A stretch of DNA of 64,000 nucleotides, taken from assembly GCA_031385045.1 (NCBI GenBank), contig JANNBC010000024.1:128001-192000 (forward strand), read 5' to 3'. A program made the position numbers and the translations under genes. This DNA is from a bacterium. GTDB lineage: Bacteria > Bdellovibrionota_C > UBA2361 > CALJRW01. The notes under the pieces were generated by a model. It had not been told where the DNA came from. It ran no database searches and was given only the letters and a program-made list of their open reading frames with translations. Positions 210 through 17,970 of the stretch are shown here, piece after piece; position 1 is the first letter of the stretch; each line of letters starts with the position of its first letter.

Positions 210-281
210 TACGCTTAAGTTATGCAAGTATTTTAGACTAATGTGAGACTAAATTGAGCGATTTCTAATACTTTCGATAAC

Positions 282-310
282 TTGTAATAGAGCTTGTCAT
301 AGGTTATAAA
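282..310 (+). promoter_or_regulatory. Putative sigma70-type promoter for the ole operon
   Basis: TTGTAA (282-287), 17-nt spacer, TATAAA (305-310), 35 nt upstream of the oleA ATG. AT-rich background makes a chance match possible. Confidence 0.3.
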
Positions 311-345
311 GTACTGGAATCATGCTTTAATTTGAAGATACCCGA

Positions 346-1413: not shown

Positions 1414-3989
1414 ACCAACAAGAGATCGATCTGCTAAAGCAGTATTATCCATTTCCATCTAAATTTCTTACAATTGCCGGGCATCAAATGCATTACATTG
1501 ATGTTGGTTCGGGGCCAGTTGTAATTTTATTACATGGTAATCCTACTTGGGGTTTTTACTATCGAGAGTTAGTAAAAACTTTACAAGAAAACTATCGAGT
1601 GATTGTGCCTGATTTTTTGGGTATGGGACTTTCTGATCATCCGATTGATGCTAGCTTTCGGTCTTCTGATCGAATTCAGCACATGCAGGAATTTATTGAT
1701 TCTTTAGAGATTAAAAAGTTTTCTTTAGTAACCCATGATTGGGGTGGATCGATTGGTTCGGGATTAGCAATTCGTAACTTAGAAAAATTAGAGCGACTTG
1801 TATACTTAAATACAACGCTTACAGTTACAGAAAGTTTGCCGCTAATTATTAAAAGAGCAACAAAGCCTTTAATTGGAAACTTCCTAACTCAAAGAACTAA
1901 ACATTTCTTAAAATTAACAACTGAAGTTGGCGTTGCTAAAAAGTTACCGAAAGAGATTAAGAAGTGTTATTTATTACCTTACAAAACCAGAGCTAGACGC
2001 AAGGCAATTTGGGATTTTGTTGCGGACATTCCTTTTGATAGTAACCATCCAAGTTATCCAGCCATGTTAGATTTGGCAGAAAATATTGGTACCTTAAGTA
2101 AAATTCCTGTCCAAATTATTTGGGGATTAAAAGATCCTTGCTTCCATCGTGAGATGCTAAATAACGTAGCTGGATTATTCCCACAATCTCGTGTCTTAGA
2201 AATTCCGGATGCTTCACACTTAGTTCTAGAAGATGCTGAGGAACTTACCTGCAAAACAATCAAAAATTTTCTAGCTATGCCTTACGAGGAAGCGATTCAA
2301 CCGATTTATTCTGATGATGCTTCTACAGAAACTCCGGAAGACATTAACGCTTTTTTTCGAGCCTTCACTGCAAATGTGAAAAAACAGCCTTACACCTACG
2401 CGGCAATTGAACCAAGCTTTTTGATTGATGATTTAAAATATCGGCAGATTAATTTTAAAGATCTGGCCAAGACAATTAATAAATACCAGCGTGGATTAAG
2501 TGAATTAGGACTGAAGGCCGGGGATAAAGTTCTGATGCTAGTTCCACCGGGAATTAATTTTTTAACCTTAAGTTATGCGGTAATGGGGCGTGGAGCCGTG
2601 CCCGTATTTCTTGATCCTGGAATGGGCAAAGAGAAATTAATTAATTGCATTGAAGAATTAAAACCAGATGTTTTAATTGCTTCGTTGAAAGCGGAACTAT
2701 TTAGGTTTTTAAAGCCTAAAATATTTAGCTCGGTTCGATTTAGAATTGTTGCCAGTGAATGGTTTCTGGGTCGTGCTTATTCCTTATCATATTTAAAGAA
2801 GTTTGCTGAGCAAAGTATTCCAGCAATTGCCAATCCGGATCAGAATGTTTTAGTTGCTTATACCTCAGGTGCGACAGGTAGGCCGAAGGGCGTGGTTTAT
2901 GACAATCAAATGATTAATGCGCAGCTAAAGATTTTTAAAGAGCAGTTTGGATTAGAAGCTGGTAAAAAAGATTTGCCATTACTGCCTATCTTTTCTTTGT
3001 TTAATTTGGCCTTGGGTATTACTAGCGTAATCGCACCACTTAATCCTTCCAAGCCATTGGAATTAGATCCTCGAAAAGTTACCCAGATTATTAACGATCT
3101 AGGAATTAATTACTCATTTGGTTCTCCCACACTTTGGAGAAAGATTGCAGAATATTGTTTCCGTTCTCGGCAATCTTTATTGTCCCTCGAGAAAATATTT
3201 ATGGCTGGGGCTCCAGTTCCAGAAAGTACAGTGGGGTTGTTAAAAGATGTTGTTCCGAATGGAGAATCTTTCACACCTTATGGTGCAACAGAGGCTTTGC
3301 CTGTGACCTTAATTAGTGGTCAGGAAATTTTAGATCTAAAACGACAACCTGCCAAATCTGGCGAGCAAGGAACCCTTGTTGGAAAAGAAGTGAAAGGGGT
3401 TGAGATCAAAATTATTGCGCGACGATCTGATCAGACCACTGACTTTTCAGCAATTCAGGAGTTAGAACATTTAGCCATTGGTGAGATTATCGTTGCTGGT
3501 GATAATATTAGTAAAAAATATTTTGAACTTCCGGAAGCAAATAAAAAGTCTAAGATCCTAGAAGGTTCAAAGCTTTGGCATGTAATCGGTGATCTTGGAT
3601 ATTTAGATCTAAGTGGTAATTTATATTTCTGTGGACGAACCACTCATTTAGTTGAATATCAAGGAGCTATTTATTATAGCGAGCCCTGCGAAATTCCTTT
3701 TAACTTACATCCTAAGGTTTCTAGAACAGCTTTAGTTAAACTAGATTCTGGTGAGCCAGCAATTGTGATTGAGCCATTACCTCAGTACTATCCAGATACT
3801 AGCGAGAAAAAGGCAATTTTCGTGAAAGAGTTGAAGTTAATTGCTGGACAGCAGTCCTTCACTAAACACATTAATCGTTTTTTCTTTCACCAATCATTTC
3901 CAGTCGATCCGCGACATAATGCTAAGATTTATCGAGACATCTTAGGGGTTTGGGCTAGCCAACAAGAACCTAATTTGAGTGAAATATAA
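1410..3989 (+). CDS. oleBC: OleB-OleC fusion: haloalkane dehalogenase-like beta-lactone decarboxylase plus AMP-forming beta-lactone synthetase
   Basis: N-half: HGNPTW, HDWGG nucleophile elbow, WGLKDPCF, ASHLVLED. C-half: YTSGATGRPKG, TPYGATEALP, GDLGYLD, FPVDPRHNAKI. GTG at 1410 overlaps the oleA TGA (ORF track starts at TTG 1407). Confidence 0.9.
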   Translation: MNQQEIDLLKQYYPFPSKFLTIAGHQMHYIDVGSGPVVILLHGNPTWGFYYRELVKTLQENYRVIVPDFLGMGLSDHPIDASFRSSDRIQHMQEFIDSLEIKKFSLVTHDWGGSIGSGLAIRNLEKLERLVYLNTTLTVTESLPLIIKRATKPLIGNFLTQRTKHFLKLTTEVGVAKKLPKEIKKCYLLPYKTRARRKAIWDFVADIPFDSNHPSYPAMLDLAENIGTLSKIPVQIIWGLKDPCFHREMLNNVAGLFPQSRVLEIPDASHLVLEDAEELTCKTIKNFLAMPYEEAIQPIYSDDASTETPEDINAFFRAFTANVKKQPYTYAAIEPSFLIDDLKYRQINFKDLAKTINKYQRGLSELGLKAGDKVLMLVPPGINFLTLSYAVMGRGAVPVFLDPGMGKEKLINCIEELKPDVLIASLKAELFRFLKPKIFSSVRFRIVASEWFLGRAYSLSYLKKFAEQSIPAIANPDQNVLVAYTSGATGRPKGVVYDNQMINAQLKIFKEQFGLEAGKKDLPLLPIFSLFNLALGITSVIAPLNPSKPLELDPRKVTQIINDLGINYSFGSPTLWRKIAEYCFRSRQSLLSLEKIFMAGAPVPESTVGLLKDVVPNGESFTPYGATEALPVTLISGQEILDLKRQPAKSGEQGTLVGKEVKGVEIKIIARRSDQTTDFSAIQELEHLAIGEIIVAGDNISKKYFELPEANKKSKILEGSKLWHVIGDLGYLDLSGNLYFCGRTTHLVEYQGAIYYSEPCEIPFNLHPKVSRTALVKLDSGEPAIVIEPLPQYYPDTSEKKAIFVKELKLIAGQQSFTKHINRFFFHQSFPVDPRHNAKIYRDILGVWASQQEPNLSEI

Positions 3990-4983
3990 AATGGCGAAAA
4001 TTCTTGTCACTGGTGGAAGTGGATTTGTTGGTCAAGCACTAGCGATTGCTCTTAGTCAGGCTGGTCATCAAGTAATTGCTTTAAGTCGTAAGCCTAATCC
4101 GGAACTACAAAAGCTTGGAATCCAAATTATTTCCTGTGATTTAGCAAAAAAAGATGAGATTGATTCTATCTCACTTACTGGGGTAGAAACTATTTTTCAT
4201 ACTGCTGCTTATGTAAAAATGTGGGGGAAATATAATAATTTCTATCAAACAAATTTCTTAGGAACCAAATATCTACTAGAAAAAGCTAAGGCTCAGCACG
4301 TTAAGAAATTTATTTATACTAGCTCTCCAAGTGTAATTGCAGACGGTAAAGATTTAAAGGGTATTAACGAAGCTTACTCCTATCCCAAAAAGTACAAAGC
4401 CTATTATCCACAAACAAAATCTTTGGCTGAAAAATTTGTTCTTGCAAATAACTCCAAGGATTTTAAAACTCTAGCACTTCGTCCGCATCTTATTTGGGGA
4501 CCAGGAGATACAAATCTAATTCCCACAATTTTAGCTAAGGCCAAATCTGGAAAATTAAAGATTATTGGTGATGGCCAGAATAAAGTAGATATTTGTTACA
4601 TTGAGGATTGTATCTCGGCACATCTTTGTGCTTACTCCGCACTTGATGCTAATCCGAAAGCTGCGGGTAAGGCTTATTTTATCAGCCAAGGGGAGCCAGT
4701 AATACTTTGGGATTGGATTAACCAAGTCTTAGAATTAAATGGTCTACCAAAAATTACCAGAAAGATACCTTTTAAGTTTGCTTATAGTTTGGCGACAGTT
4801 TTAGAGTTGCTTGCTAGGCTAATTCCTAGTGCTCCAGAACCAATTTTAACTCGATTTTTAGTTTCTGAAATGGCCACAGATCATTACTTTGACCTAGCCA
4901 GAGCCAAGGAATTTTTAGGTTTTCAGCCAAAGTATTCTGTTCAAGCAGGGATGGAAAAGACTTTTGGTAAATCTAATTGCTAA
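3979..4983 (+). CDS. oleD: OleD, 3-beta-HSD-like extended SDR (2-alkyl-3-oxoalkanoate reductase)
   Basis: VTGGSGFVG Rossmann motif, YTSSPSV, YPQTK (YxxxK), LRPHLIWGPGD; operon position. Start could be ATG 3991. Confidence 0.88.
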   Translation: MKYKMAKILVTGGSGFVGQALAIALSQAGHQVIALSRKPNPELQKLGIQIISCDLAKKDEIDSISLTGVETIFHTAAYVKMWGKYNNFYQTNFLGTKYLLEKAKAQHVKKFIYTSSPSVIADGKDLKGINEAYSYPKKYKAYYPQTKSLAEKFVLANNSKDFKTLALRPHLIWGPGDTNLIPTILAKAKSGKLKIIGDGQNKVDICYIEDCISAHLCAYSALDANPKAAGKAYFISQGEPVILWDWINQVLELNGLPKITRKIPFKFAYSLATVLELLARLIPSAPEPILTRFLVSEMATDHYFDLARAKEFLGFQPKYSVQAGMEKTFGKSNC

Positions 4984-5886
4984 TTATTTAAAGCTACTTT
5001 GGATTTTAGTAATAAATTCTTCGGCTGGTAATTTAACAACTTGGTGTAAAAAATTAGCTAGGGGTAATTTTTTTTCAGTATCAGTTCGGGATCTAATTAA
5101 AGCTTGATAGAGAGATTTTCCGAGCTTTGTTTCTTCAATCTCATAATCAAGTCGATCGGCATGAGCTTTGACAATTTGTCTAGTGTCACTATCTGCAGGT
5201 AGTCCATGTCGAGCAATTGCTTGCATCATTCCTTTGCCAAGCTCTAAAAGTAATACAGGTAAAACAACTCCTGCAGCATTGACACTAGTCCCTCCGCTGG
5301 AATCATTTTCTAGATTTACAATGCCCGCTGGGGGAGTATGCTTTTGCATTTCTTTTAACATTTGCGGATTGATTGCCCAATAAAGAGATTCAGCGAAGGG
5401 CATGACCTTTTTATAGTTTAGAGCTAAGTCAGGATTTATTTGATCTAACTGATCATCTTTTAACATGTAGATATTTTGACAAGAGTGCCCAGCACCAGCA
5501 ATTAAAAAATTAATTAGGCGGCGTTTCTTAATTTCTAACTCAATCTCTGGAGTAATTGGATTAGCCGGTAAAAATGTAGCTAGAGCTAAGGGGTTCGCCT
5601 GAATTAATTGTTCTGGGTGATGTGGGATTTCCTGTGGAGAGACTAAACTTGCACTAAGTTTGATATCAGATTCATTAGCTTGAAATGCTTCATAAATCCA
5701 AGTTTTTGCTAGTTGTTGAAGTTTTTCTTGGTGAGGCTCTTCAATTGTTTGAATTCTAATAGAAGCTTGTTGCAAACTAAAGTTTTGGTTAAGGCCTGCT
5801 GCAATAAGTCTAGTCTGAAGATCCTCTTTGGCGATTGATGTTAAATGTTGGCTTATAGTAGACCCAAGAATTTCTGCGATATTCAT
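4984..5886 (-). CDS. Uncharacterised protein, possibly of a family found in large phages
   Basis: 300-aa ORF with motifs KKRRLINFLIAGAG, INPDL, LPVLLLELGKG, HGLP. Family resemblance is from memory and unverified. Confidence 0.7.
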   Translation of the reverse strand: MNIAEILGSTISQHLTSIAKEDLQTRLIAAGLNQNFSLQQASIRIQTIEEPHQEKLQQLAKTWIYEAFQANESDIKLSASLVSPQEIPHHPEQLIQANPLALATFLPANPITPEIELEIKKRRLINFLIAGAGHSCQNIYMLKDDQLDQINPDLALNYKKVMPFAESLYWAINPQMLKEMQKHTPPAGIVNLENDSSGGTSVNAAGVVLPVLLLELGKGMMQAIARHGLPADSDTRQIVKAHADRLDYEIEETKLGKSLYQALIRSRTDTEKKLPLANFLHQVVKLPAEEFITKIQSSFK

Positions 5887-5988
5887 AGTAAGGTATTTCT
5901 AAACTAAGTTGTTTCTTAGTCAAATTTTGTTTGATTTTAGCTTATTAATTGAGTTATTATTTACAAGCTTAAAGTTATCGGAGATTTT

Positions 5989-6177
5989 ATGGTAATTATA
6001 GAAAGTAGCAGAACAGCTGCTGTAGCTCCTACCCCTGTTAGAGAACCTGCAGTTAGGCCAATTATTGAACCGCAACCAGTTACCCCAAAAGTACCAACGC
6101 CTGCACCGAATCCTGATAGTCCTTTTCGACTTCCTCCACATATAGATCCAAATGAAACAGAACGCCCGAAAGCTTAG
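5989..6177 (+). CDS. Small proline-rich peptide (62 aa)
   Basis: GGAG Shine-Dalgarno just upstream of the ATG; 16 of 62 residues are Pro; fills the gap and ends 14 nt before the next ATG. Confidence 0.65.
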   Translation: MVIIESSRTAAVAPTPVREPAVRPIIEPQPVTPKVPTPAPNPDSPFRLPPHIDPNETERPKA

Positions 6178-6191
6178 TTAAGGAGAAATTG

Positions 6192-7874
6192 ATGGAGCAA
6201 GTAGGGGTTAATAGTGATCTAGCTGCAATTAGGCTAGATCAAGAGTTTCTTGCAACGAATGATCTGAACAGAGTGGAGCAACTAATTTTAGCTGGTGCTA
6301 GAATTAACACCGTTAATGAAACTGGTCATACAAAGCTACACTTAGCTATTCAAAATAAACAATATGCAATTTTAGGTTTACTAATTGCGGCAGGTGCTGA
6401 TGCTAGCATTCGTTCTGTGAATAATTATGCGCCCTTAGCAATTGCTTTAAAGAATAAGGATGAGCGTGCTGTCTGGATGCTAGCAACTTTGGGATTTGAT
6501 TTAGATCAAAGTCATAATGGCATTGGAGCGCAATTTACTTTTCTAGCAAATCAATTACTCAAATTAAATAATAAAGGTTTTGATCCCTTAACTATCTTGC
6601 AAGAAGCATCAAGAATGTTCTTTCTTGAAGCGCCTGATTTAATGAAAGTATTCCCAGTTTTTCCAAAGCCCCCTGATGCCTTGATCACAGTACGAGACTT
6701 AGAAGTATTACATATCTTTGTAATGGCAGGAGCATTGCTTAGCTCGGTGGATCCAGATCACTATACTTCAGATTCCTTTACCTTTCGGCCTAAAGAAGCT
6801 TATCCTCATATATCTAGGCTTTTAAAAAATATTTTTAGTGTTGCAGTTGAAGATATCAGCAAAGTTAGTCAAGGATTGTTAAATTTTGAGCAGGCTGATT
6901 TGAAACATTTTAAGGACTTTTATCAGTTTGCTTTGAAATATCTAGTTGTTCCTGAAATCCTCAATCAAATTCCCGCAGGTTATTTATCAGAATTTAATAA
7001 ACATATTTTTCACAAAGTAGAGCAGGATATAGGAAAGTCCTTTCTGGAATATTTAACAATGCACCGACCAATTGATTTATTACAAAATTTAAATCAAATC
7101 TGGCACTTGCGAGTAAATGATTTTATTGCGCTAGCTCGGGATTTTTCTCCAGTTGGTGATTCCTGGAGGCCGGTACTTCCTAATTGTGAGATACCAACTG
7201 GCCTTCCTGAGCTTGCCGGATGGAAGATAATTAATTTAGTTAATGGTGAGCAACTGAGTCATGAGGGACAGGCCCTTCGTCATTGCGTTGCTGGATATTC
7301 GCGGTCTTGTATGGAACATAATAGCCATATTTGCTCAATTCGTGATCCAAGTAATGTCTCTCGATCAACATTTGAATTTAAAGTATTACTAGCCGATGAT
7401 GCCAATTATAAAGACCGAGTAGCATCATTTCGAAATGTAGGGTTTGCCATTCCGGAAACAGGAAGTGAGCCAGCACGAATATTTAGACTTGTTCAACATT
7501 CTGGAGAAAGAAATGCTAGTCCCTCGGAGGAATGTAAGAAGATTATTGAATATTTTATGGATCAAGTTAAGTTTGGTATTTATGATTTAAAACCACAAAC
7601 TATAGTTAACGAACAAGGTGTTGTAGATTTCACTCAAATTAGTTTTTTAGAAAATTATGTTGGGATTCGCAAGGATAGGTTTAATGCCGAGCGCTGTGAG
7701 CAAGTAATTGACTTATTCGCTGGTCGTAGTCATGGCTTTGTTAAATTGCGACATGGGCGAAAAAAATCATTAATTCCTAGAGCACTCTCAAGACAAGGCT
7801 ACGATGCTTTTTTTGAAGCTAGCGGACTACGAACTGCAATTAAGGGAAGTTTAGCAATTCATTTTATGAAGTAA
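6192..7874 (+). CDS. Ankyrin-repeat protein with C-terminal PcfJ-like domain (paralog 1)
   Basis: Ankyrin motifs GHTKLHLAI...LLIAAGAD and YAPLAIAL; C-terminal LSHEGQALRHCVAGY...SHICSIRD...STFE...QHSGERN. AAGGAG SD favours ATG 6192 over TTG 6189. Confidence 0.8.
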   Translation: MEQVGVNSDLAAIRLDQEFLATNDLNRVEQLILAGARINTVNETGHTKLHLAIQNKQYAILGLLIAAGADASIRSVNNYAPLAIALKNKDERAVWMLATLGFDLDQSHNGIGAQFTFLANQLLKLNNKGFDPLTILQEASRMFFLEAPDLMKVFPVFPKPPDALITVRDLEVLHIFVMAGALLSSVDPDHYTSDSFTFRPKEAYPHISRLLKNIFSVAVEDISKVSQGLLNFEQADLKHFKDFYQFALKYLVVPEILNQIPAGYLSEFNKHIFHKVEQDIGKSFLEYLTMHRPIDLLQNLNQIWHLRVNDFIALARDFSPVGDSWRPVLPNCEIPTGLPELAGWKIINLVNGEQLSHEGQALRHCVAGYSRSCMEHNSHICSIRDPSNVSRSTFEFKVLLADDANYKDRVASFRNVGFAIPETGSEPARIFRLVQHSGERNASPSEECKKIIEYFMDQVKFGIYDLKPQTIVNEQGVVDFTQISFLENYVGIRKDRFNAERCEQVIDLFAGRSHGFVKLRHGRKKSLIPRALSRQGYDAFFEASGLRTAIKGSLAIHFMK

Positions 7875-7887
7875 ATAGTCTTAAAAG

Positions 7888-8595
7888 CTAGGACTTACTT
7901 TTGTAGATTCTTCCTTTTAGAACCTCATCAAATAACTCAGGTAGTCTAGCACCATCGGAACACCAAGTTGCATTAAAAATTACAATCTCCTTCTGAAGTG
8001 ATAGCTGATGAAGTTGATCAATAACTTTTTTCATTGTTTCGCCCTGAAATGGATTAAAGAAATAAAAGACTGTGCCATCTTGATAATTTACTTCAGAGGC
8101 ATCAGCTAATTTAAAACTGACACTTTTGGAAAGATTTAAGTCCCGAGCCTTTTGCTCTGCCGCTGAGCAAAGTGCTTCCTGGATTTCTACGCCAACTGTT
8201 CGACAGCCTGAAGCCAAATGCATTAATAGGCAGGGGAAGCCTCCTCCTGAACCTAAATCATAAAATGTATCAGCCGGAGTCAGGTTACAATGTTTTAAAA
8301 GTACTTGTGGCAAGTAAGCCATAGACTTCATATAGGGAAAAGAATCAGTGTTATTAGGATAGCTAATTTGATTTAAACTTTGAAAGACATGATCATCAAA
8401 GCCTAATAGCTCTTCAACGCAACTTGGTCGCCATTCTCCTTTAAAGGTAATTTCTTTTTGAAATTCAGTAGGTGAAAGAGTCCCATCAATTATTTGAGTT
8501 CTAATTATTGCTAGTCTTTCTAGATACAGTTCTCGATTTAAATCAGAGATTTCTGCAAGTGGTAACTGCGAAGCGAGAGAGGGAGATACATGCAC
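7888..8595 (-). CDS. Class I SAM-dependent methyltransferase, DOT1-like
   Basis: DTFYDLGSGGG motif I, TVGVEI motif II, ADA, VFYFFNPF motif IV. Confidence 0.75.
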   Translation of the reverse strand: MHVSPSLASQLPLAEISDLNRELYLERLAIIRTQIIDGTLSPTEFQKEITFKGEWRPSCVEELLGFDDHVFQSLNQISYPNNTDSFPYMKSMAYLPQVLLKHCNLTPADTFYDLGSGGGFPCLLMHLASGCRTVGVEIQEALCSAAEQKARDLNLSKSVSFKLADASEVNYQDGTVFYFFNPFQGETMKKVIDQLHQLSLQKEIVIFNATWCSDGARLPELFDEVLKGRIYKSKS

Positions 8596-8711
8596 TAAAA
8601 GAATTTAACTAGAATCTTGTTCTTAATCAAATTTGAACCCCAAAATGACTAAATTTGACTAGCTAGAGAATGTAATTACAATCATACTTCCAATTTCTGA
8701 TTTGTCTTACC

Positions 8712-10814
8712 ATGCTAAAAATTAGTGATTTGCTTGGCAGTTTACCCTTGGCTGAATTCGTTCAGCAAGATCCTAAGCTTAATCGCGATCTCCGAGAATA
8801 CAGTTTTACAAATTATGATCGGAATAGCTTACTTGGAAAACTTTCCGCTTTAAATTCTCAAGATTCTCACGGAAATGATTTAACTCACATGGCTGGTATT
8901 AGAGGGCAGTATAATACATTAAATTTTCTAAATTACTTTGAAAAATTAGGGATGGATATTAATCGTCCAAATAATTATGGTTTTACACCACTTCATTTAG
9001 CAGTAATTTTTGGACATCTAGATATTGTTTCAGAATTATTAAAGAAAGGTTTCGATTCCAACGTACTAATATCCTTAGCAACGAAATCTTTATCTTTTTT
9101 AAGTAACAAGAATTTTCAGCTACTTCAAAAAAGAACGGATCTAAAGTTATGGGATCAGGACTATGTAAAGTCACTGAGTCTGATCCAAATTGCCGCGATC
9201 ACAAAAGATCAAAGAATGATCTGTCTTTTACTTAAGTCTGGAGCAAATCCTGATTGTCAGATAGGAGATGAAAGCTTTGTAAGTTATTTGCTTAGTAATA
9301 ATTTTACAGATTCAGTTTGTACATTATTAAATACTGCAGAAAAAGATTTTCTTAAAAAAGCACAGTCGGAAGCGGGATTATTCAATTATTTTTTAAAGAA
9401 TCGAAATGATAATCTTTTAGGAATTTTAGTTAATAAAATTGGAATTCCCGAAGAAGTTTTAGCCAAAGACTTCTTTAATTTTTTAGCAAAAGTAACGGAC
9501 TCTGATTTTGAGAATTATTCTTGGAAGCCGCAATACTTTAAAAAACCTCATCAGTTATTAGTAGGACAAATATTTCGTGACCGTTTTGGCAGTTATGAAG
9601 CGGGATTATTAAATTTAAAAGACAAAAAGCAGGTCTTAACTTTAATAAGAAACATTAAAGTATTATTGACTGATTTTAATGCTTTTAAAAAGGAATTAGT
9701 AAAACTTGTTCCCGAGTATCAATCACTTCTTGATCAGCTTAGCCCTAAAGGTAAAATTCAAAATAAGAGTTTTGGACAAGTAGTTTTTTATATTGCTAAA
9801 TTAGCGGAACAAGTAGATTGCGATACTCCTTTCCAAGAATCGAGCCACTTTTACAGAATTCTTGCTAATACAATTCGCGAGCAACAGAGTTTAAGGATTT
9901 CCTGGTCAGAATATTTACACCATAAGATTGAAGGAAATATTTACAAACTTGATGGTTTTAATGATGTTCTAAATGAATATCAGAATGCTGTAATTTACCC
10001 TTCTCTGGTTAATCGATTATTAGAACAAGGATTTAAATTTGAAGATATTAGGAAAAAAGATCTTTGGTTAAGCTATTCTAGTAAGGAAATCGCCCTGGAA
10101 CATTTATTAGATGACAAATCAATTGGAAATATTTTTAGGTTTAATACTCTGTGGCACAGAACGGATATGCGTTTACCAGAAGCAGCATGCCCTGACTTAG
10201 AAAATAATAAGTGGGCAGCGATCATTCCCAATTCTAGTTGGCCAATGGATTCTAGATATACTGTGGTGAATTTAAGAACAGGTGCTGAATTAGCGCAAGA
10301 AGGGAATGATATGAGGCATTGTGTAAAAGGTCGTACATATTCCTGTAGTAATGCTGATAGTCATATTTTAAGTATTCGCGATCATGGAAAATCATTGGCA
10401 ACAGTTGAAGTATCTCTTAGCGAACTTAAAAATGGCAAGATCGGCTTGATAGTTAAAGAAATTAAGGGGCCACGTAATTGCAAGCCATCTGTACAAGCAG
10501 AACATGTTATGAAAAATTTTTTGGAGGCAATTGATCAGGGAGCATTAGTTATTAATAAAATTGACCGATTGGAAACTCAAAGAAAAAATAGAGAAGCTGA
10601 TTCTCATAGAGATTATATTCTGAAAACCTATGTCCGACCAGGGGTTGCTCCTGATGGCGCAATTCAACATTACGCGGGGCTTCGAATATATATGAATAGA
10701 GATGGACAAGAAAAATTTATGTTAGGAGCCTTTCGACCAGCAGGTTATTTACTGCATGAAATTATATCAAAAAGAATTGCTCAATTAAAGTTTAGATTAC
10801 CTGAAGCGGCATAA
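8712..10814 (+). CDS. Ankyrin-repeat protein with C-terminal PcfJ-like domain (paralog 2)
   Basis: QDSHGNDLTHMAG, NNYGFTPLHLAVIFGHLDIVSELL; C-terminal LAQEGNDMRHCV...SHILSIRD...LATVEV...EIKGPRN. Confidence 0.85.
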   Translation: MLKISDLLGSLPLAEFVQQDPKLNRDLREYSFTNYDRNSLLGKLSALNSQDSHGNDLTHMAGIRGQYNTLNFLNYFEKLGMDINRPNNYGFTPLHLAVIFGHLDIVSELLKKGFDSNVLISLATKSLSFLSNKNFQLLQKRTDLKLWDQDYVKSLSLIQIAAITKDQRMICLLLKSGANPDCQIGDESFVSYLLSNNFTDSVCTLLNTAEKDFLKKAQSEAGLFNYFLKNRNDNLLGILVNKIGIPEEVLAKDFFNFLAKVTDSDFENYSWKPQYFKKPHQLLVGQIFRDRFGSYEAGLLNLKDKKQVLTLIRNIKVLLTDFNAFKKELVKLVPEYQSLLDQLSPKGKIQNKSFGQVVFYIAKLAEQVDCDTPFQESSHFYRILANTIREQQSLRISWSEYLHHKIEGNIYKLDGFNDVLNEYQNAVIYPSLVNRLLEQGFKFEDIRKKDLWLSYSSKEIALEHLLDDKSIGNIFRFNTLWHRTDMRLPEAACPDLENNKWAAIIPNSSWPMDSRYTVVNLRTGAELAQEGNDMRHCVKGRTYSCSNADSHILSIRDHGKSLATVEVSLSELKNGKIGLIVKEIKGPRNCKPSVQAEHVMKNFLEAIDQGALVINKIDRLETQRKNREADSHRDYILKTYVRPGVAPDGAIQHYAGLRIYMNRDGQEKFMLGAFRPAGYLLHEIISKRIAQLKFRLPEAA

Positions 10815-10840
10815 TTTTTTAAAAACTTAGAGATTTTCAA

Positions 10841-12931
10841 ATGTCATCCGTAACTTATTTGCTTGGAAAGATACCGGTAGCTGAAAATGTTACTCCAACT
10901 TCGGATTATGATGCATGCTTCCGTAGATTTCACTTCTCGGTAAGAGAACGCAGTAAAAATCTTGATCAAGTTAAAGCATTAAATGTTCAAGATAGTTATG
11001 CGAACGATCTATCACATGTTGCTAGTATTCGAGGACGTTTAGATGCATTACAATTACTAGCAAAACGTGGGATGGATATTGATCGTCCCAATAATTTAGG
11101 ATTTACACCACTAACGATTGCCGTGCTTTTGGGACATCACCAAGTAGTTGCTGGGTTATTAAAATTAGGGGCATCTCCAGACAATTTATTCCCCCTCTAC
11201 TCTAAAGCACCAGTCTTCTTTGGGGATAAATATGTTCATTTTTTCAAAAATCGAATTAACCAACCTAGAGTCCTTGAAACTTTACCACTAGAGTTAACTT
11301 CCTTGCAATTCGCAACATTAATAAAAGATGAAAAAATGATCTGCTTATTACTTGAAAATAAAGCAAATCCGAATAGCAAATTACTTGGGAAATCAATCGT
11401 TACCTATTTTTTCTCTGCTAATATGAAAGAAGCAATAGAAAAGTTTATTTCAATGGCTAGTTCAGAAGCAATTAAGCTAGTTCAAGCAGAATTTCCGTTA
11501 GCTCTTACCTGTTTAAAACACAAAAAATTTAATTTAGTTAAAGATATAATTGATAAAGTAGGTGTAGATCGGGATACTTTTACGGATGAATTTTTTGATG
11601 CTTGGAGCTCAGAAAACTTTTTAATCGGCTATAAAATGAAGAGCCGACTTAATTTATTAAATAAATATTTAATAAAAAAAATTAGCACAAGTGAACTTGG
11701 AGCAGGTTTAGAGATTTTAAAGGATTTTCCTTTAGAACATAAAATAAATGAAAAAATTAGACTCATGCGTATTCTAGTTAATGGCTTTGATACTATAAAA
11801 AAGGGAATTCTTGCCGAAGAACCAAAATTTGAAAAACTTTTAAATCAATTAATACCACATGGGAAATTGCAAAATAAGAACTTTGGACAAGTAGTTTGCT
11901 ATGTTTCCTTTTTACTTGCTGCGATCCATCCTGAAGATAATCACCTTAGTATTCCTCATTTATATAAGATATTAACAAATACTATCAGGGAACAGCAACA
12001 TTTAAGAATGACTTGGTCGCAATATGTCAGCCAAAAAATAGAAGCTAATGTTTATAAAATTGATGGTTTTGTTGATGTCATCAAAGAATATCAAAATGCT
12101 GTAATTTATCCTTCCTTAGTTAATAAACTTTTAAAAGAAGGGTTGGATTTTAGGTCGATTATTGCCCAAGAGACAGAATTAGATCGGCGAGCATTAAAGC
12201 TGGCACTTGAGCATATTGTTGATGACAAATCGATTGGTAGTCTTTTTCGCTTTAATACTCTTTGGCATCGACCGGATATGAGACTGCCTGATGCTAGTTG
12301 TCCTGATCTGGAAAATATCAAATGGCAACCTGTACTACCAAATGGTTTATGGCAAATGGATTCAAGGTTTAGTGTTGTAAATCTACGAAGTGGAAGAGAG
12401 TTAACAGAGGAAGGAGTTGCAATGAAGCACTGTGTTAGTTCTAGAGCTGACCGTTGTGCTAGGGGAGAGTCGCATGTTTTAAGTATTAAAGATCAAGGTC
12501 GATCGATTGCAACAGTAGAAGTTTCAATTGTAGACAACCAAGAGAAAGGTAGAACTTTGCAAGTAATTGAATTTAGAGGAGTTGCCAACCAAGCAGCGCC
12601 AAAAGAAGCGATTATTGTATTAGATAGAATGATTGCAGAAGTTGCTGAAAAGAGATTAAGAATTAATGATATTCCAATAAAAGAACTTCAAAAAGCTACT
12701 AGTGAAGCAGATGCTTTAAATTCCTATATTAGAAAATCTTATGTTCGCCCAGGAGTTGAGCCGCAAGGTGCCTTAACTCACTATGCCGGATTAAAAATAT
12801 TTATGAATCGAACTGATCAAAAGAAATTTCTGCTTGGTGCATTTAGAGAGGATGGTTATGATCTAGGAAGACTAATCGCCTGCAGTATTGATCAACTCGA
12901 AATCAAAGAGCAGGCATTAACAGATCTATAA
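10841..12931 (+). CDS. Ankyrin-repeat protein with C-terminal PcfJ-like domain (paralog 3)
   Basis: NNLGFTPLTIAVLLGHHQVVAGLL; LTEEGVAMKHCV...SHVLSIKD...IATVEV...EFRGVAN; colinear with paralog 2. Confidence 0.85.
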   Translation: MSSVTYLLGKIPVAENVTPTSDYDACFRRFHFSVRERSKNLDQVKALNVQDSYANDLSHVASIRGRLDALQLLAKRGMDIDRPNNLGFTPLTIAVLLGHHQVVAGLLKLGASPDNLFPLYSKAPVFFGDKYVHFFKNRINQPRVLETLPLELTSLQFATLIKDEKMICLLLENKANPNSKLLGKSIVTYFFSANMKEAIEKFISMASSEAIKLVQAEFPLALTCLKHKKFNLVKDIIDKVGVDRDTFTDEFFDAWSSENFLIGYKMKSRLNLLNKYLIKKISTSELGAGLEILKDFPLEHKINEKIRLMRILVNGFDTIKKGILAEEPKFEKLLNQLIPHGKLQNKNFGQVVCYVSFLLAAIHPEDNHLSIPHLYKILTNTIREQQHLRMTWSQYVSQKIEANVYKIDGFVDVIKEYQNAVIYPSLVNKLLKEGLDFRSIIAQETELDRRALKLALEHIVDDKSIGSLFRFNTLWHRPDMRLPDASCPDLENIKWQPVLPNGLWQMDSRFSVVNLRSGRELTEEGVAMKHCVSSRADRCARGESHVLSIKDQGRSIATVEVSIVDNQEKGRTLQVIEFRGVANQAAPKEAIIVLDRMIAEVAEKRLRINDIPIKELQKATSEADALNSYIRKSYVRPGVEPQGALTHYAGLKIFMNRTDQKKFLLGAFREDGYDLGRLIACSIDQLEIKEQALTDL

Positions 12932-12946
12932 ATTTATTAAGTATTT

Positions 12947-14971
12947 ATGAAAAAAGTCTCAAAGTTTTTCCAAGATATAAATTTAGCTGAACATGTATTA
13001 CCAGATGCGAACAATGATATAATTTTAGCTAATTGTGTATTTAAAACTAAAAATAAGCTGGAACTAAAGCTTATTAGTCATCTAAATATACAGGATTCTT
13101 ATGGTAATGATTTGACCCACTATGCTGCACTAAGAAACCAACTAAGTCTTTTGTTATATTTAGAGAGTCGGGGATTAAACTTAGATCGACCTAATATTCA
13201 TGGATTAACTCCACTACATTTAGCATTAATGACCGAGTCGCAGCAGGCAACTACTTTCTTGATTAAACGGGGAGCAAATTTAGAACAAGTATTTAATCTT
13301 CCTAAGCCAGATCAAGAACTCTTTTTTGCACCTAGCAGTTTAGTTAAGAAGATTGTTAATCGATCCTTATCGATGTGTGAACAGCCAGAACTCAGTGCAA
13401 TTCAACTAGCAGCTTATAATTTAGATAGAGTTGCTCTAAAGCAAATGTTTTTAGCTAAGTCGAATCTGAGTTCAAATATGAACGGAGAGGACTTAGGTAG
13501 TTTTCTTTTACGAGAAGATCGCGAAATTTTCCGATCGTATCTGGAACATTTAAATTTAAATAAGCTCTTTGATATTTGGAAAGAAATTGATTGCGACGAG
13601 CGAATAAAATTGTCTGGGAAAGTTAGGGAGTCTTTAAATAATTCAGAGTCAATAATCAAAACCGAGCTATCGCAAGATTTATCTGAGACTTTGAACCGTG
13701 GGGATTTTCTTCACTTAGTTTTAAAAACTAAAATAAATCAGCTTTTTTGTTCAAAAACAGAGCCGTTGATTGAACATTTTTGTAAGTCAAATTGTGATGG
13801 CGTTCAAGCTTTATATTATCTAAAAGAGCTTTATAATAATTTTAGAATTATCGAAGATCAATTAATTGACAGATTTCCGGCCTCAAAACCTATTCTTCAT
13901 GACTTAGTGCATCAGGGTAGGATAGTTAATAAGAGATTTGGGGAAGTGATCCTATATATACTAGCAACAATTGGAGAAATTTTACCAGATGAAGATCCGA
14001 TGCAAAGTGGAGCCTTTATTCCAATTCTTGAGAATACAATCAAAGAACAGCAGCGTTTGAAACTTAGTTGGGCAGAGTATGTCTCTCAAAAAATTTTAGC
14101 AAATAATTATAAAATCTCCGGTTTAGGGGATTTATTCAATGAATATCGCAACTCTATAATTTTCCCCTGTTTAGTAAATAAATTATTGGAAACGGGACAA
14201 GATATTTCTGCAATTATGGAAAATTCAAAGTCATTAGATCGAATTGCATCTAAAATTACTCTGGAGCAAATCATCCAAGATAAATCACTGGGAAGTTTAT
14301 TTCGATTTAATACTCTTTGGCATCGTGCTGATATGCGTTTGCCTGAATCGGCCTGTCCCGATCTAGAACTTATTGGATGGGCACAAATTATCCCAGGTGG
14401 AGTTTGGCAGATGGATAGCACCTTTAAGATTGTGGAATTAAATTCTGGCAAAAAACTGGAAATTGAAGGTCAGGAGATGCATCATTGCGTAAGGAGTCGG
14501 ACTGGTAGTTGTGTTGATGGCAGATCACATATTTTTAGTATTAAAGAAAATAATTCTAGTATCGCTACTATTGAAATCCGCTTAGATAAAAGTAGTTCGG
14601 GACATGTAGCACTGGAAGTCACTGAAATGAAGGGGCCTGGCAATGCTCCTTGCTCACAAGCTGCCAAGAATGTTTGGTCAAATTTCATTTCCAAATATAA
14701 TAATGGAGACATCTCCCTAAATTTTTCAGCACTTGGCGCATCTAAAGATGAACAGCAATATTTTACTCCATTGATGAACAATTATTTAGCTAAGACATAT
14801 GTGCGACCTGGCAGACATCCGATTGGAGCTATAAATCATTATGCCGAATTAAAAATATGGATGAATCGTACTAACGAAGTGAAGTTTCTTTTTGGAGCTT
14901 TTCGGTCAAAAGACTTTAGACCTCATCAAATTTTAAAAGATGCCATTGAACATAATACCGAGGCGGCCTAA
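12947..14971 (+). CDS. Ankyrin-repeat protein with C-terminal PcfJ-like domain (paralog 4)
   Basis: QDSYGNDLTHYAA, NIHGLTPLHLAL; LEIEGQEMHHCV...SHIFSIKE...IATIEI...EMKGPGN. Confidence 0.85.
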   Translation: MKKVSKFFQDINLAEHVLPDANNDIILANCVFKTKNKLELKLISHLNIQDSYGNDLTHYAALRNQLSLLLYLESRGLNLDRPNIHGLTPLHLALMTESQQATTFLIKRGANLEQVFNLPKPDQELFFAPSSLVKKIVNRSLSMCEQPELSAIQLAAYNLDRVALKQMFLAKSNLSSNMNGEDLGSFLLREDREIFRSYLEHLNLNKLFDIWKEIDCDERIKLSGKVRESLNNSESIIKTELSQDLSETLNRGDFLHLVLKTKINQLFCSKTEPLIEHFCKSNCDGVQALYYLKELYNNFRIIEDQLIDRFPASKPILHDLVHQGRIVNKRFGEVILYILATIGEILPDEDPMQSGAFIPILENTIKEQQRLKLSWAEYVSQKILANNYKISGLGDLFNEYRNSIIFPCLVNKLLETGQDISAIMENSKSLDRIASKITLEQIIQDKSLGSLFRFNTLWHRADMRLPESACPDLELIGWAQIIPGGVWQMDSTFKIVELNSGKKLEIEGQEMHHCVRSRTGSCVDGRSHIFSIKENNSSIATIEIRLDKSSSGHVALEVTEMKGPGNAPCSQAAKNVWSNFISKYNNGDISLNFSALGASKDEQQYFTPLMNNYLAKTYVRPGRHPIGAINHYAELKIWMNRTNEVKFLFGAFRSKDFRPHQILKDAIEHNTEAA

Positions 14972-15241
14972 GTTTAATGTTTGGGGAAACCAAAACACCT
15001 AAAATGCGCTAAAGCCTATTGGGTTTGAATATACTTTCACCTGCACGTCACCTTGTGCCATGCCTCCTCTTGTAATCGCAACTTACTAAATATCCATAAA
15101 ATAAATAGTAAATTGGACATGTTAGCTTTCTATTTTGGGTTTTGAACCTGCTTACTAATTAACTTCATCATAATAGCTGTTTACAATACCTAAAATTTTA
15201 CTGGCTACATGTAAGATCAATTTTTATAAAAGAAAAATTCT

Positions 15242-15709
15242 ATGACAGCAGGATTAGCAGCATTAGGACAGAGTGTCGATATATCCAAATTAGATGGGGA
15301 CACTCGCTTGGCTCGAGTAGTTCAGCATTATATTGCTGTTGCTAATAGTTTAGTAAATGCTAGCGAAGTTTCCCGAGAGTTATCAGATCACTGGCCATTA
15401 ATTACTAGAGAACTTAGTCAGCCGGGGGCGGTTCACATGGATCCGGCAGTTGATGGTGGGCTAAAGATTGGTGGGTACACTTTTCGTGTTAACCAAGAAA
15501 CAAAGTTAATTGAAGTCCATGATTATCATTTTGGTGAGGGCGAGCCATTGTTTACACTTTCTAGTGCAGGTCAGATTGCTAGGAATTATCAAAATCCTAG
15601 CGATGTTAATTATAGTGAAGATCCGGTTCGAATGGTTTTTAGAGAGATTGGTAAATTATATACCCCAGAGACCTTACGACAAGCTTTTGAATGGGAACCT
15701 AAGGCTTAA
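15242..15709 (+). CDS. Hypothetical protein
   Basis: 155-aa ATG-started ORF filling the gap; no recognised motif. Confidence 0.65.
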   Translation: MTAGLAALGQSVDISKLDGDTRLARVVQHYIAVANSLVNASEVSRELSDHWPLITRELSQPGAVHMDPAVDGGLKIGGYTFRVNQETKLIEVHDYHFGEGEPLFTLSSAGQIARNYQNPSDVNYSEDPVRMVFREIGKLYTPETLRQAFEWEPKA

Positions 15710-15953
15710 GATTAGATTGGGTTAGTTTTGATTTTATTAGTTGCAGTTCTTCTAAAGTAGATAAATTACTTTGTTTTTGCTTTGCTAGTCTGTACCAATA
15801 ATTAGCATTGGAGTTATCACCTTCAATCTTATGCAAGATTGCATGAATCCAATAGGCATAAGGCTGATCTAGATCCTGAACAATCTGGTGAGCATCTTCC
15901 CATTTACCAAGTATGGCTAGATCCACTGCTTGGATAATGAGCTGCTGTGACAT
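15699..15953 (-). CDS. Small conserved hypothetical helical protein
   Basis: W.DAH.IVQ...AYWIHAILHKIEGD.SNA.YWY is a recurrent pattern in uncharacterised bacterial proteins; translationally coupled to the AsmA gene. Confidence 0.75.
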   Translation of the reverse strand: MSQQLIIQAVDLAILGKWEDAHQIVQDLDQPYAYWIHAILHKIEGDNSNANYWYRLAKQKQSNLSTLEELQLIKSKLTQSNLKP

Positions 15954-17869
15954 TAAAATCCAAATTTATTTAATAAATCTTTTCCAGTTTCTCCTAGCTT
16001 ATCCTTAACTTTTTCTTTGACTTTATCTTGGATTGCTTTAGTTGCAGCAAGTTCAATTAGACGTTTTAGGTTTGGAACAATGATTAAATGTTTTTGTGTG
16101 CCCCTAATCACTAATGGTAAGACTAGTTGGCCATTTTTATCTAGAATTTTCTCTAGTTCCTTAGTCTTGGACGCAAGGGCAGCAGAAAATGCTTTGTTAA
16201 AAGTAATTTCTGAATTTAGATTAATAGTTTTATCTAAACCAATTGTTCCGTCTGCCGTAAGATTAAAGATTGTACTAAGCAGAGTTAAAGAATTAAGTTT
16301 CAAACTAGAGTTAGCTAAAGTAAAGTTAGTTTTTAGCTCATTAATTGCAGTATCCTCACCAGTAACTTCTCCACGAAGTGATTCCGGAACAGCATCTAAT
16401 AAAGATCCAGCAATAAAAGGTAAGTCTTTAACTACTGCCAATACTTTAGCAGGAAGATTAGTGCCTTTTAATGTTCCCTTAGTTAATAGAAGCTCTCCCT
16501 GAGCTCCAAGTGAACTCATTAGTTTTGGCCCCAGACTTCCATTTGCTTTTAAGTTTAATGAATTAAGAGTCCCAGCAAAAGTTTCTAAAATTGGCATCGG
16601 CAGTGCTTGATAGGCTTGTCCTAAGTCCAGTGCTGTCAATTTCGCAGTTGTTTGAAAAGTTTGTGATTTTAAATTAGTTCCACCAGAAATATTTGCTGTT
16701 CCACCAAAAATTTTGACTAAGGCATTTTCAACTGTGGCATCAGATCCTGCTAAGTTGGCATTAAAGGTAGCAGTCATAGGAGCATTACCTACAAGTAGAT
16801 TTAAATCATTTGAGGAGACATTTTGTTTTGTTAAGTTTGCTTGTAAATTTAAGTTGCCTCTCAGCTTAGTAACGGCAATGCTACCAAGATTTGCCATGAT
16901 GTCGGCAAGTTTAATTGTGCCATTGGCATTAATTTCTTTAGCATTGTTAATTGCTATTTTGATTTCAGGAGTTACACTTCCAGCGACTCCCAGGGCTTTT
17001 AATGCCGGAGTAAAGGCGGTTAGAGCACTAGCAACTTTTGCTAAATCAAGATTTTTGCCTGTTAAGCTAGTCGTACCCTGAAAGGCCTTAAGATTAAAAT
17101 CAGAGTTTACTTGAAATTCTGTATCTAATAATTTCGCAACAAGTGTTGGTAAGCTGAGATTTTGTTCCTTTAAATCAAAAGTTATCTCCTTAGATTCTAA
17201 TGCTAACTTTGTAATTCCAGTGATTTCAGTATCAACGGTTAATTCACAAAGCTTAGCCAGACTTCCTGCTAGTTCCACAACGGCACCAACACTTAGGGGA
17301 GTTATAATAAATTTTTTGTTGCTCACTTGATCTTGAAACTCAATTGTTGCATCGCTAATTTGAAATTTTTCTAAGGCAATTTCAATCCCACCTGGGATTG
17401 ATTGGGGAGCTGTAGTCTTTGTTAGAGCAGACTCAGAGGGAGTTGAAGCGGGCAGCCCTTCGCTGTTTTTTTCAGGCACCGGAAGTCCATCGATCTGAAT
17501 GCCAGTTTTAGTTTTAATAATTTTAATGCTAGGACTTGTTACTGTTAGTTCCTTTATTAATAATTTCTTTTTAAGTAATTCTAGAATTGCAACGTCTAGT
17601 TTAATACCCTTAATGGCTATTCCCGGAGAGGTCGCGGTCTTACCAATTGTTAGGCTTTCAACATCCACAATCGCATTTGGAAAAACTTTGAGGTTTAGAG
17701 CGCCCAGTTGAACTGGTGTTTTAAGGAGGACACTAATCTTTGATTCTAGAAATGGCTTATTGTTATTAAGTATCTTTTGACCATTTTGAACTAGGTAAAA
17801 GCTAAGGCCTGAGATTAGTACGATCATGACAACGAGCAGAATTAATGCTAATTTAACAATTTTCTTCAT
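15953..17869 (-). CDS. AsmA-family protein
   Basis: N-terminal membrane anchor, beta-rich repeats, AsmA-like C-terminus (NLTADGTIGLDKTINL...LPLVIRGT). Confidence 0.8.
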   Translation of the reverse strand: MKKIVKLALILLVVMIVLISGLSFYLVQNGQKILNNNKPFLESKISVLLKTPVQLGALNLKVFPNAIVDVESLTIGKTATSPGIAIKGIKLDVAILELLKKKLLIKELTVTSPSIKIIKTKTGIQIDGLPVPEKNSEGLPASTPSESALTKTTAPQSIPGGIEIALEKFQISDATIEFQDQVSNKKFIITPLSVGAVVELAGSLAKLCELTVDTEITGITKLALESKEITFDLKEQNLSLPTLVAKLLDTEFQVNSDFNLKAFQGTTSLTGKNLDLAKVASALTAFTPALKALGVAGSVTPEIKIAINNAKEINANGTIKLADIMANLGSIAVTKLRGNLNLQANLTKQNVSSNDLNLLVGNAPMTATFNANLAGSDATVENALVKIFGGTANISGGTNLKSQTFQTTAKLTALDLGQAYQALPMPILETFAGTLNSLNLKANGSLGPKLMSSLGAQGELLLTKGTLKGTNLPAKVLAVVKDLPFIAGSLLDAVPESLRGEVTGEDTAINELKTNFTLANSSLKLNSLTLLSTIFNLTADGTIGLDKTINLNSEITFNKAFSAALASKTKELEKILDKNGQLVLPLVIRGTQKHLIIVPNLKRLIELAATKAIQDKVKEKVKDKLGETGKDLLNKFGF

Positions 17870-17970
17870 AACAAGAACTTTATTTTAAAAAGAATTTTTG
17901 GCACCGAGCTTAAGCCTCATTGAAATGTAATTAATTTAGAGAGCAGTTAAATTGGATTAGTTGAATTATT

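Follow-up and report, generated by a model that had tools for sequence, protein, structure and literature searches.

What do four neighbouring genes do when each joins N-terminal ankyrin repeats to a PcfJ-like domain, of a family that is common in phages, plasmids, integrative conjugative elements (ICEs) and uncultured bacteria? The question is raised by an array in a 64,000-nt stretch of DNA, here called the window, from an uncultured sediment bacterium of a predator-rich lineage whose genome is metagenome-assembled and 95% complete. The features at issue, in window coordinates, are:

4977-15810, no strand: island absent from the congener, 11 kb (blastn against congener genome G001)
4984-5886, - strand: orphan protein of 300 aa, an open reading frame (ORF)
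5989-6177, + strand: proline-rich ORF of 62 aa with a GGAG-type ribosome site, stopping 14 nt upstream of gene 1
6192-7874, + strand: gene 1, 560 aa from ATG (TTG at 6189); ankyrin residues 23-106, PcfJ matched at residues 349-395
7281-7286: His-Cys codons of gene 1
7888-8595, - strand: class I SAM methyltransferase, top Pfam match DOT1 (38.2 bits, cut-off 23)
8712-10814, + strand: gene 2, 700 aa; ankyrin residues 40-117, PcfJ residues 513-573
10317-10322: His-Cys codons of gene 2
10841-12931, + strand: gene 3, 696 aa; ankyrin residues 41-114, helical middle, PcfJ residues 504-589
12428-12433: His-Cys codons of gene 3
12326-12670, + strand: GNAT-like core of gene 3 in the predicted model (pLDDT 90.3), residues 496-610, with Glu524, His530, Cys531, Cys539, Ser548, Thr558, Glu560 and Asn583; the conserved Trp475-His476 and Trp495 lie immediately N-terminal of it
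12947-14971, + strand: gene 4, 674 aa; ankyrin residues 43-113, PcfJ residues 490-548
14483-14488: His-Cys codons of gene 4
15242-15709, + strand: orphan of 155 aa, an ORF 3' of the array

All four array genes are intact + strand ORFs with an ankyrin part and a PcfJ domain, as the first-pass annotation had read them. The intergenic gaps it gave (26 nt between genes 2 and 3, 15 nt between genes 3 and 4) were correct, and the His-Cys codon pairs lie where it had placed them, with HCV present in every copy; this HCV motif is a feature of the PcfJ-like family description (PF14284). Against that Pfam family, genes 1-4 scored 26.8, 31.4, 44.9 and 30.7 bits (cut-off 25), and ankyrin families exceeded their cut-offs in all four. 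The ankyrins appear in the gene 3 model as a helix-pair solenoid, with additional helix pairs after the ankyrin match up to residue ~240. In a profile search of the genome, the array genes were the sole PcfJ and the sole Ank_2 matches.

An assembly artefact, or a set of decaying duplicates without function, is a very improbable reading of this locus, and contig agreement together with the conservation pattern largely refutes it. Although the genome is metagenome-assembled, independent contigs agree: a separately assembled contig (run X1, which may be the source) covers positions 3000-18000 with 0 differences, and a second study holds pieces of the locus in three runs, mostly at an identity of at least 99%. 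As well, the frames are intact, copies that are 36-42% identical have retained the motif, and other assemblies encode orthologue-like proteins at 28-39% identity.

The suggestion of a four-fold amplification held in part. Genes 2-4 are tandem duplicates, 36-42% identical to one another, but gene 1 is a distant homologue (21-24% identical to genes 2-4) that falls on a different branch of the domain tree, itself a quick version, and is separated from the other three by the - strand methyltransferase gene (7888-8595). Divergence within the tandem set is unevenly spread, the targeting half being 17-26% identical against 52-56% for the domain. The middle region, first described as poorly conserved, deserves that description in its first half (17-26% among genes 2-4), but not in the helices preceding PcfJ, which match at 45-57%.

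In blastn comparison with the congener G001, matches were found at 262-4976 and 15811-17869 and none between, and the syntenic locus of G001 spans only ~1.5 kb, which hold a pilin-like gene and incomplete copies of the flanking sequences. The flanks are what we take to be an ole-like hydrocarbon operon on one side and an AsmA-like gene on the other. Within the island, the 300-aa orphan had 0 matches in Pfam, NCBIfam, PADLOC and PHROG and no paralogue in the genome, and the 155-aa orphan had no family match in the same four collections. Codon usage is native (percentiles 50-90) and, together with the GC content (35.2% versus 36.8%), argues against recent transfer; no flanking direct repeats of a mobile element were evident among the 20 largest repeat families. 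An N-terminal 'LPLAE' signal shared by the array genes and the methyltransferase was considered and set aside as non-significant in a non-circular test (rank 9 of 2244, E 2.5).

A variable island of this kind would suit cytoplasmic defence sensor-enzymes, whose ankyrins would detect phage or plasmid proteins and activate PcfJ, which would then modify an invader or host target. Against this, the island ORFs include no integrase or defence gene and their codon usage is native. Matches to PADLOC (2023) were limited to the ankyrin part and to a methyltransferase stretch of a generic kind, with no full-length component match; because matches to the array proteins were confined to their ankyrin parts, the earlier label of anti-phage enzymes was not borne out.

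What the domain itself might catalyse was approached through its predicted fold. The domain model of gene 3 (m755d901c5d39), in agreement with the GNAT-like fold first proposed, matches the N-terminal two-thirds of GNAT proteins (best Z 8.2, rmsd 3.0, 102 aligned residues), with RimL/RimJ-type and other acyltransferases as its best structural neighbours. A wide fold search gave a best Z of 7.9 (rmsd 3.6, 103 aligned), and 42 of 50 titles named an acyltransferase or GNAT member. The aligned topology is beta1-alpha1-alpha2-beta2-beta3-beta4-alpha3 (Z 6-8, ~100 residues, rmsd 3-4); a Z near 8 is moderate, and a common structural arrangement may explain it. The alignment reaches model residue 226-229 and GNAT residues to ~125, while the beta5-alpha4-beta6 half, which forms the CoA cleft, is unaligned. 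The PcfJ identity is supported by fold as well, with 36 viral matches at E <=0.001 and PcfJ-like phage proteins on top (E 1e-7). Burroughs and Aravind, in work of 2016 on RNA repair, may reportedly have classed PcfJ among GNATs with a Cys, and the fold assignment may already be published. A search for solved structures related to the domain by sequence gave 0 matches; a sialyltransferase was rejected as a sequence relative, its rows standing at E of at least 1 among otherwise ankyrin and LRR matches. The full-length fold search was discarded as a means of identifying the domain, as it returned ankyrins only.

Conservation agrees with the first-pass emphasis on the His-Cys pair: Trp495, Glu524, His530 and Cys531 are present in 116 of 116 aligned relatives, a set gathered with a motif-containing profile, and in the same set Thr558 is kept in 114, His476 in 112, and Asn583 and Ser548 in 111 each. 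One relative (L008) has Leu in place of the His. Judged by the strand register of the model, the sheet residues Ser548, Thr558, Glu560 and position 577 would face the helices bearing Glu524 and His-Cys, as a pocket shared by these residues might require.

The idea of a Cys-containing GNAT-like acyltransferase stands as to the fold and the invariant His-Cys, but most members lack the canonical CoA loop. The motif A pyrophosphate loop pattern, (Q/R)xxGx(G/A), was found in only 12 of 116 rows, where it starts inside the strand, and the loop position carries G-x-x-N-x-x-P instead. It is accordingly a real possibility, if one we lean against, that the domain uses no acyl-CoA whatever the role of the proteins, and that His-Cys serves hydrolysis (as a deacylase, deamidase or peptidase), tRNA-dependent transfer or metal binding. 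The replaced loop and the unaligned C-terminal third of GNAT both point this way, His, Cys, Cys and Glu could bind a metal, and the second Cys gives way to Val, Ile or Ala in the majority of the multi-domain, phage-like relatives displayed. On the other hand, the top structural neighbours are acyltransferases of the RimL/RimJ and other types, and a G-x-I-x-x-N after the third helix with a later Gly, both partly conserved, may be what is left of GNAT motif B.

Homologue searches, Pfam scans and the domain tree show the fusion to be no local invention but part of a widespread clade, and judged by sequence the ankyrin-PcfJ architecture is not unique to the array. PcfJ-type domains matched 9,830 clusters at 50% identity, and a Pfam scan of 139 relatives, which left out the 8 weakest of 146 foreign matches, found ankyrins in 37 and leucine-rich repeats (LRRs) in 14, the two types being intermixed on the domain tree. 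The LRR part of one relative matches amoeba-endosymbiont plasmids at 34-35%. No longer homologue was found in the 1387-3960 aa range searched. The mobile-element distribution claimed for the domain was supported by plasmid homologues annotated as PcfJ and by the PcfJ-like phage proteins of the viral fold search. Within the phylum the distribution is patchy, with PcfJ in 8 of 124 genomes, fused to ankyrins in 4, and lying among orphan genes.

The neighbours of these relatives bear on two of the alternatives. In genome G087, a repeat-free PcfJ gene adjoins WYL, Nmad3 and Nmad2 genes, which favours the defence sensor-enzymes described above, as does the fact that an export route is not established. 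In contrast, the ankyrin-type relatives in G042, G062 and G107 and the PcfJ gene of G110 stand among orphans and housekeeping genes rather than defence genes, and on balance we consider a defence role unlikely, though it deserves attention. In genome G080, RtcB, a small ORF, PcfJ, Hen1 and Pnkp form one run, as would be expected if PcfJ repaired or protected RNA or tRNA (for example by acyl removal or addition) and so guarded the cell against toxins of its own or of its prey, with the ankyrins docking it on a partner. Bd3460, a predator's ankyrin self-protection protein, is in keeping with such damage control, and was among the generic ankyrin fold matches. Yet the RNA-repair-linked PcfJ protein matches only weakly (E 2e-9) and carries no ankyrins, the island contains no RNA-repair gene, and a housekeeping repair function would not be expected to be missing from the congener and from 116 of 124 genomes; we regard this explanation as improbable.

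Our preferred, if tentative, proposal, to which we give somewhat less than even weight, is that the four proteins are exported conflict effectors with a catalytic Cys, export being the weak step. The degenerate ankyrin solenoid and the fast-changing helical spacer would choose the target, and the conserved helical subdomain and GNAT-like core would hold an active site around His-Cys, underlain by a sheet with Glu and a cluster of polar residues. In another cell, reached by contact, the Cys would most likely act as nucleophile and transfer a group (acyl-type reaction) with a protein or a charged tRNA as substrate. Three copies would stem from an old tandem duplication, after which their targeting halves drifted apart, and the fourth would have come separately. 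The invariant residues, GNAT-like fold, divergent targeting half, interchangeable repeats, the LRR match to endosymbiont plasmids, the patchy distribution among orphan genes and the Tad/Sct genes speak for these effectors, and the lack of SctN, T6SS and VirB4, the N-termini without export character, the mostly missing CoA loop and the repeat-free PcfJ genes in RNA-repair or defence-like operons speak against them.

For the earlier idea of effectors, the genome searches revealed no complete route of export. In one Tad cluster there are genes for FHA, phosphatase, kinase and SctV; the genome further has two sets of SctJ/R/S/U/V, with no flagellin, and one lone coupling-protein-like gene. The SctN ATPase was found neither in this genome (95% complete) nor in the congener, and is present in one family member; T6SS sheath and VirB4 gave 0 matches in the genome while positive controls matched, and no injection-system sheath was found in it either. 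Searches for T3SS needle genes and for an ATP/ADP translocase were empty and had no positive control. The array proteins have no long hydrophobic segment and no signal-peptide-like start, and their N-termini, by crude composition and profile tests, gave no sign of an export signal, not being rich in Ser/Thr/Pro/Asn (percentiles 15, 31, 89 and 31). Moreover, non-flagellar FHIPEP copies occur phylum-wide and so do not explain which genomes have array-type genes.

Among known systems, the array genes share their domain with the PcfJ-like family above the Pfam cut-off, but they add ankyrins, an extra conserved helical subdomain and a second Cys, and they are chromosomal, multi-copy and without adjacent conjugation or phage genes. 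GNAT acetyltransferases (RimL/RimJ type, PA3270 and the Legionella effector VipF) have the topology of the array domain at Z 6-8, although identity in the structural alignments is 3-15%, the canonical CoA motif is mostly absent, the C-terminal third is unaligned and the array domain has the invariant His-Cys between alpha1 and alpha2. Legionella AnkH/LegA3 shares the layout of repeats plus enzyme and gave weak NCBIfam matches, but these cover just the ankyrins and score 20-27 bits where the cut-off is 600, and no Dot/Icm-type VirB4 matched here. The AnkH/LegA3 catalytic domain differs from PcfJ. The Kil (Tad) plus needleless T3SS machinery with which Myxococcus preys resembles the Tad, FHA and T3SS export-gate genes, without flagellin, of this genome; SctN is present in Myxococcus but was not found in this genus, and any tie of the array to these genes would be hypothetical. 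The Myxococcus effectors are inferred, not named, in the accessible part of PMC12075869. In what is available of PMC4686830, the predator Bdellovibrio protects itself with the ankyrin protein Bd3460; its structure comprises ~190 residues of ankyrin protein standing alone, whereas in the array an enzyme-like domain is joined to the repeats.

A literature search gave no ankyrin-PcfJ fusion, as the first-pass annotation had supposed, and no PcfJ function: the available portion of PMC9376991 lists PcfJ among proteins without known function, and 'PcfJ' is absent from the main text of PMC7824862 and PMC5512222. Since the array domain has a confident model and a defined set of residues that never vary, and comes with its own targeting module, both reaction and substrate should be identifiable. 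A positive result would give the PcfJ family a function, and possibly reveal new chemistry on a GNAT scaffold; if export were shown, an uncultured lineage would also gain candidate effectors of predation by contact. A bolder version, which we think quite unlikely, is that ankyrin- and LRR-PcfJ proteins form a class of effectors widespread among bacteria that are predatory or live with hosts, and that their GNAT-like scaffold abandoned the CoA loop for a new cysteine-nucleophile chemistry, with the array as Kil/needleless-T3SS cargo; if true, it would reveal the activity of the entire phage and plasmid PcfJ family.

The four ankyrin-PcfJ genes singled out by the first-pass annotation are real and its description of their domains was correct. 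With two neighbours they are arranged as follows (window positions):

5989-6177, + strand, proline-rich ORF of 62 aa, a short ORF beside a large orphan-like ORF
6192-7874, + strand, gene 1, intact ORF of 560 aa
7888-8595, - strand, SAM methyltransferase with DOT1 as best Pfam match, between genes 1 and 2
8712-10814, + strand, gene 2, intact ORF of 700 aa
10841-12931, + strand, gene 3, intact ORF of 696 aa
12947-14971, + strand, gene 4, intact ORF of 674 aa

As had been noted, the four share one strand, with gaps of 26 nt (genes 2-3) and 15 nt (genes 3-4), and their His-Cys codons fall exactly where they had been placed. Both PcfJ (PF14284; 26.8-44.9 bits) and an ankyrin family score above the Pfam cut-offs in each gene, and the source genome (G000; 2.83 Mb, 95% complete) contains no further PcfJ or Ank_2 match. 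Mis-assembly can be ruled out, because one separately assembled contig, possibly from the source sample, matches the region without differences, and pieces of it are covered in three runs from another study.

The array had been described as four paralogues. This holds for genes 2-4, which at 36-42% identity are, judging by their sequences, old tandem duplicates, whereas gene 1 is distant from them (21-24%). A quick tree built on 164 domains places genes 2-4 in one group together with six foreign proteins (support 98), and gene 1 in another that includes two further foreign proteins (support 97). Similarly, the supposedly poorly conserved helical middle proved to be so in its spacer (17-26% identity among genes 2-4) but not in the helices preceding the domain (45-57%); the ankyrin part is 32-39% and the domain 52-56% identical.

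The genes lie in an island (4977-15810) that is missing from a congener (G001, 97% complete) syntenic on either flank. Codon use in the island genes is native. The remaining content comprises two orphans, the proline-rich ORF and the methyltransferase; a search of the island ORFs turned up neither an integrase nor a defence gene. Where the island would be, the congener carries a pilin-like gene, with both flanking genes partially duplicated (L018:6510-8168), which suggests a site prone to recombination. The methyltransferase has an N-terminal extension with LPLAE, also present in gene 2, a sharing that was not significant in a profile test. Three places in the source genome (window 5989-6177, C20:21172-21420, C61:48475-48699) have a short proline-rich ORF (62-83 aa) adjoining a large orphan-like ORF, and a similar short ORF lies close to an ankyrin-PcfJ gene of G062 (L049:11719-11922).

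Residues 385-696 of gene 3, modelled from 116 sequences (pLDDT 90.3, pTM 0.82), match the GNAT core at residues 496-610 (best Foldseek E 0.013). A wide structure search gave Z 7.9 (rmsd 3.6, 103 residues aligned), and values below 8 may, by the tool's own warning, reflect a common arrangement; a second comparison gave Z 8.2 (rmsd 3.0, 102 residues). The stronger argument for a GNAT fold is the unanimity of the match list, in which, of the 50 wide-search matches, 42 are acyltransferases or GNAT members by title and the remaining eight presumably GNAT-fold as well. The aligned part of the GNAT structures ends at residue ~125, and what lies beyond is unmatched by the model.

Trp495, Glu524, His530 and Cys531 (gene 3 numbering) are invariant in 116/116 rows, followed by Cys539 and Thr558 (114 each), His476 (112), and Ser548 and Asn583 (111 each), the rows having been picked by a profile that includes the motif. 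In one relative Leu replaces the His of His-Cys, and position 577 is Gln in 104 rows and Glu in genes 2-4. In the model, His-Cys is located between helices 1 and 2, which Ser548, Thr558, Glu560 and position 577 would face according to strand register, suggesting one predicted pocket shared by His-Cys and the polar cluster. Genes 1-4 offer a candidate active site open to testing; activity and delivery are putative. Of the earlier proposal of a GNAT-like acyltransferase, the shape stands, but acyl-CoA use is putative: the canonical CoA loop of GNATs is replaced in this family by G-x-x-N-x-x-P, the CoA-loop pattern appearing in 12/116 rows and out of register. This replacement fits a chemistry other than acyl-CoA transfer, whatever the role, which we regard as a serious possibility, albeit on balance doubtful.

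The PcfJ family is already known, without an assigned function, and Burroughs and Aravind are said to have perhaps named it a Cys-bearing GNAT in 2016. In the available portions of PMC9376991 and PMC5758913, and likewise of PMC10782964, PMC3084688 and PMC8594834, PcfJ is named merely as annotation, and the word is absent from the main text of two Aravind-group papers (PMC7824862, PMC5512222). A search on PcfJ with GNAT, cGNAT and ankyrin-GNAT effectors, outside which most subscription papers fell, found nothing relevant, and the ankyrin-PcfJ architecture is apparently undescribed, as first supposed.

The source genome is not the sole carrier of the fusion. Among 124 phylum genomes the domain profile matches eight: four with ankyrin-fused PcfJ (G000, G042, G062, G107), two with repeat-free PcfJ (G080, G087), one whose protein has no Pfam family at E 0.001 (G110) and one with a contig-edge fragment (G103). 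A wider search returned 9,830 clusters (E <=0.001), of which 146 of the best 150 were foreign; among 139 Pfam-scanned relatives (138 of these plus P0006), 37 match ankyrin and 14 LRR (E <=0.001, some below curated cut-offs). In the tree these types are clustered yet intermixed, with three changes each, compatible with one origin, and, to judge from longest contigs of equal length, four other assemblies appear to carry paired relatives on one contig. The host of one relative is an 'Alphaproteobacteria bacterium', and the LRR part of one matches Ca. Paracaedimonas acanthamoebae plasmids. Relatives lacking repeats are carried by phages and plasmids, in line with the supposed tie to mobile elements, and some adjoin topB or a strawberry-notch protein. 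Six giant proteins (P0021, P0044, P0051, P0069, P0096, P0128; 1200-3300 aa) hold two to four PcfJ units each, P0021 with an additional topoisomerase IB domain. In G080, RtcB, a small ORF, PcfJ, Hen1 and Pnkp form one same-strand run (L053:61-7239), which by gene content would link repeat-free PcfJ with RNA repair; G087 has a cluster of DUF2779, PcfJ, WYL, Nmad3 and Nmad2 (L052:759-7033).

None of the four proteins has a signal-peptide-like segment, their N-termini are not effector-like in composition and share no significant signal, and searches of G000 yielded no VirB4 and no sheath of a T6SS or injection system. Such an absent export route, like the other family contexts, fits a cytoplasmic defence role, which we consider unlikely, and also fits RNA-damage control, to our minds quite improbable. 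G000 does have a Tad cluster that includes genes for FHA, phosphatase, kinase and SctV, besides two SctJ/R/S/U/V sets and two secretins. The two split export-gate sets and the Tad/Kil-like cluster occupy C7:10299-22342, C8:422-8200, C13:18837-22651 and C38:43356-47947. SctN was found in neither G000 nor G001 (G002, of the same family, has an SctN-like ATPase), and the export gate of this genus is possibly ATPase-less. FHIPEP genes occur in 123/124 phylum genomes and are therefore no pointer to PcfJ carriers. Flagellin is absent from all three genomes of this family; many phylum members have 10-29 Flagellin_N matches, and 11/124, including this whole family, have none. Tad cluster, Sct sets and absent flagellin together resemble the Myxococcus Kil and needleless T3SS, which, in the portion available, is described as killing and lysing prey with effectors only inferred (PMC12075869); among Bdellovibrionota genomes, as many as 81% are reported to carry Kil systems (PMC13200544, available portion).

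Because of the repeat-plus-enzyme layout, swapped repeat types, diverged targeting half, patchy distribution among orphan genes and predator-type machinery, we tentatively favour, at somewhat less than an even chance, reading genes 1-4 as conflict effectors that would be exported, the repeat part picking the target and the PcfJ domain transferring a group via its Cys.

Elsewhere in the window, 346-4983 (+ strand) carries thiolase-like, hydrolase-AMP-ligase fusion and 3-beta-HSD genes by Pfam family, a layout we take to be an oleA-oleBC-oleD olefin operon, and 24108-25979 (+ strand) encodes a protein of 623 aa in which three stretches match transglycosylase SLT.
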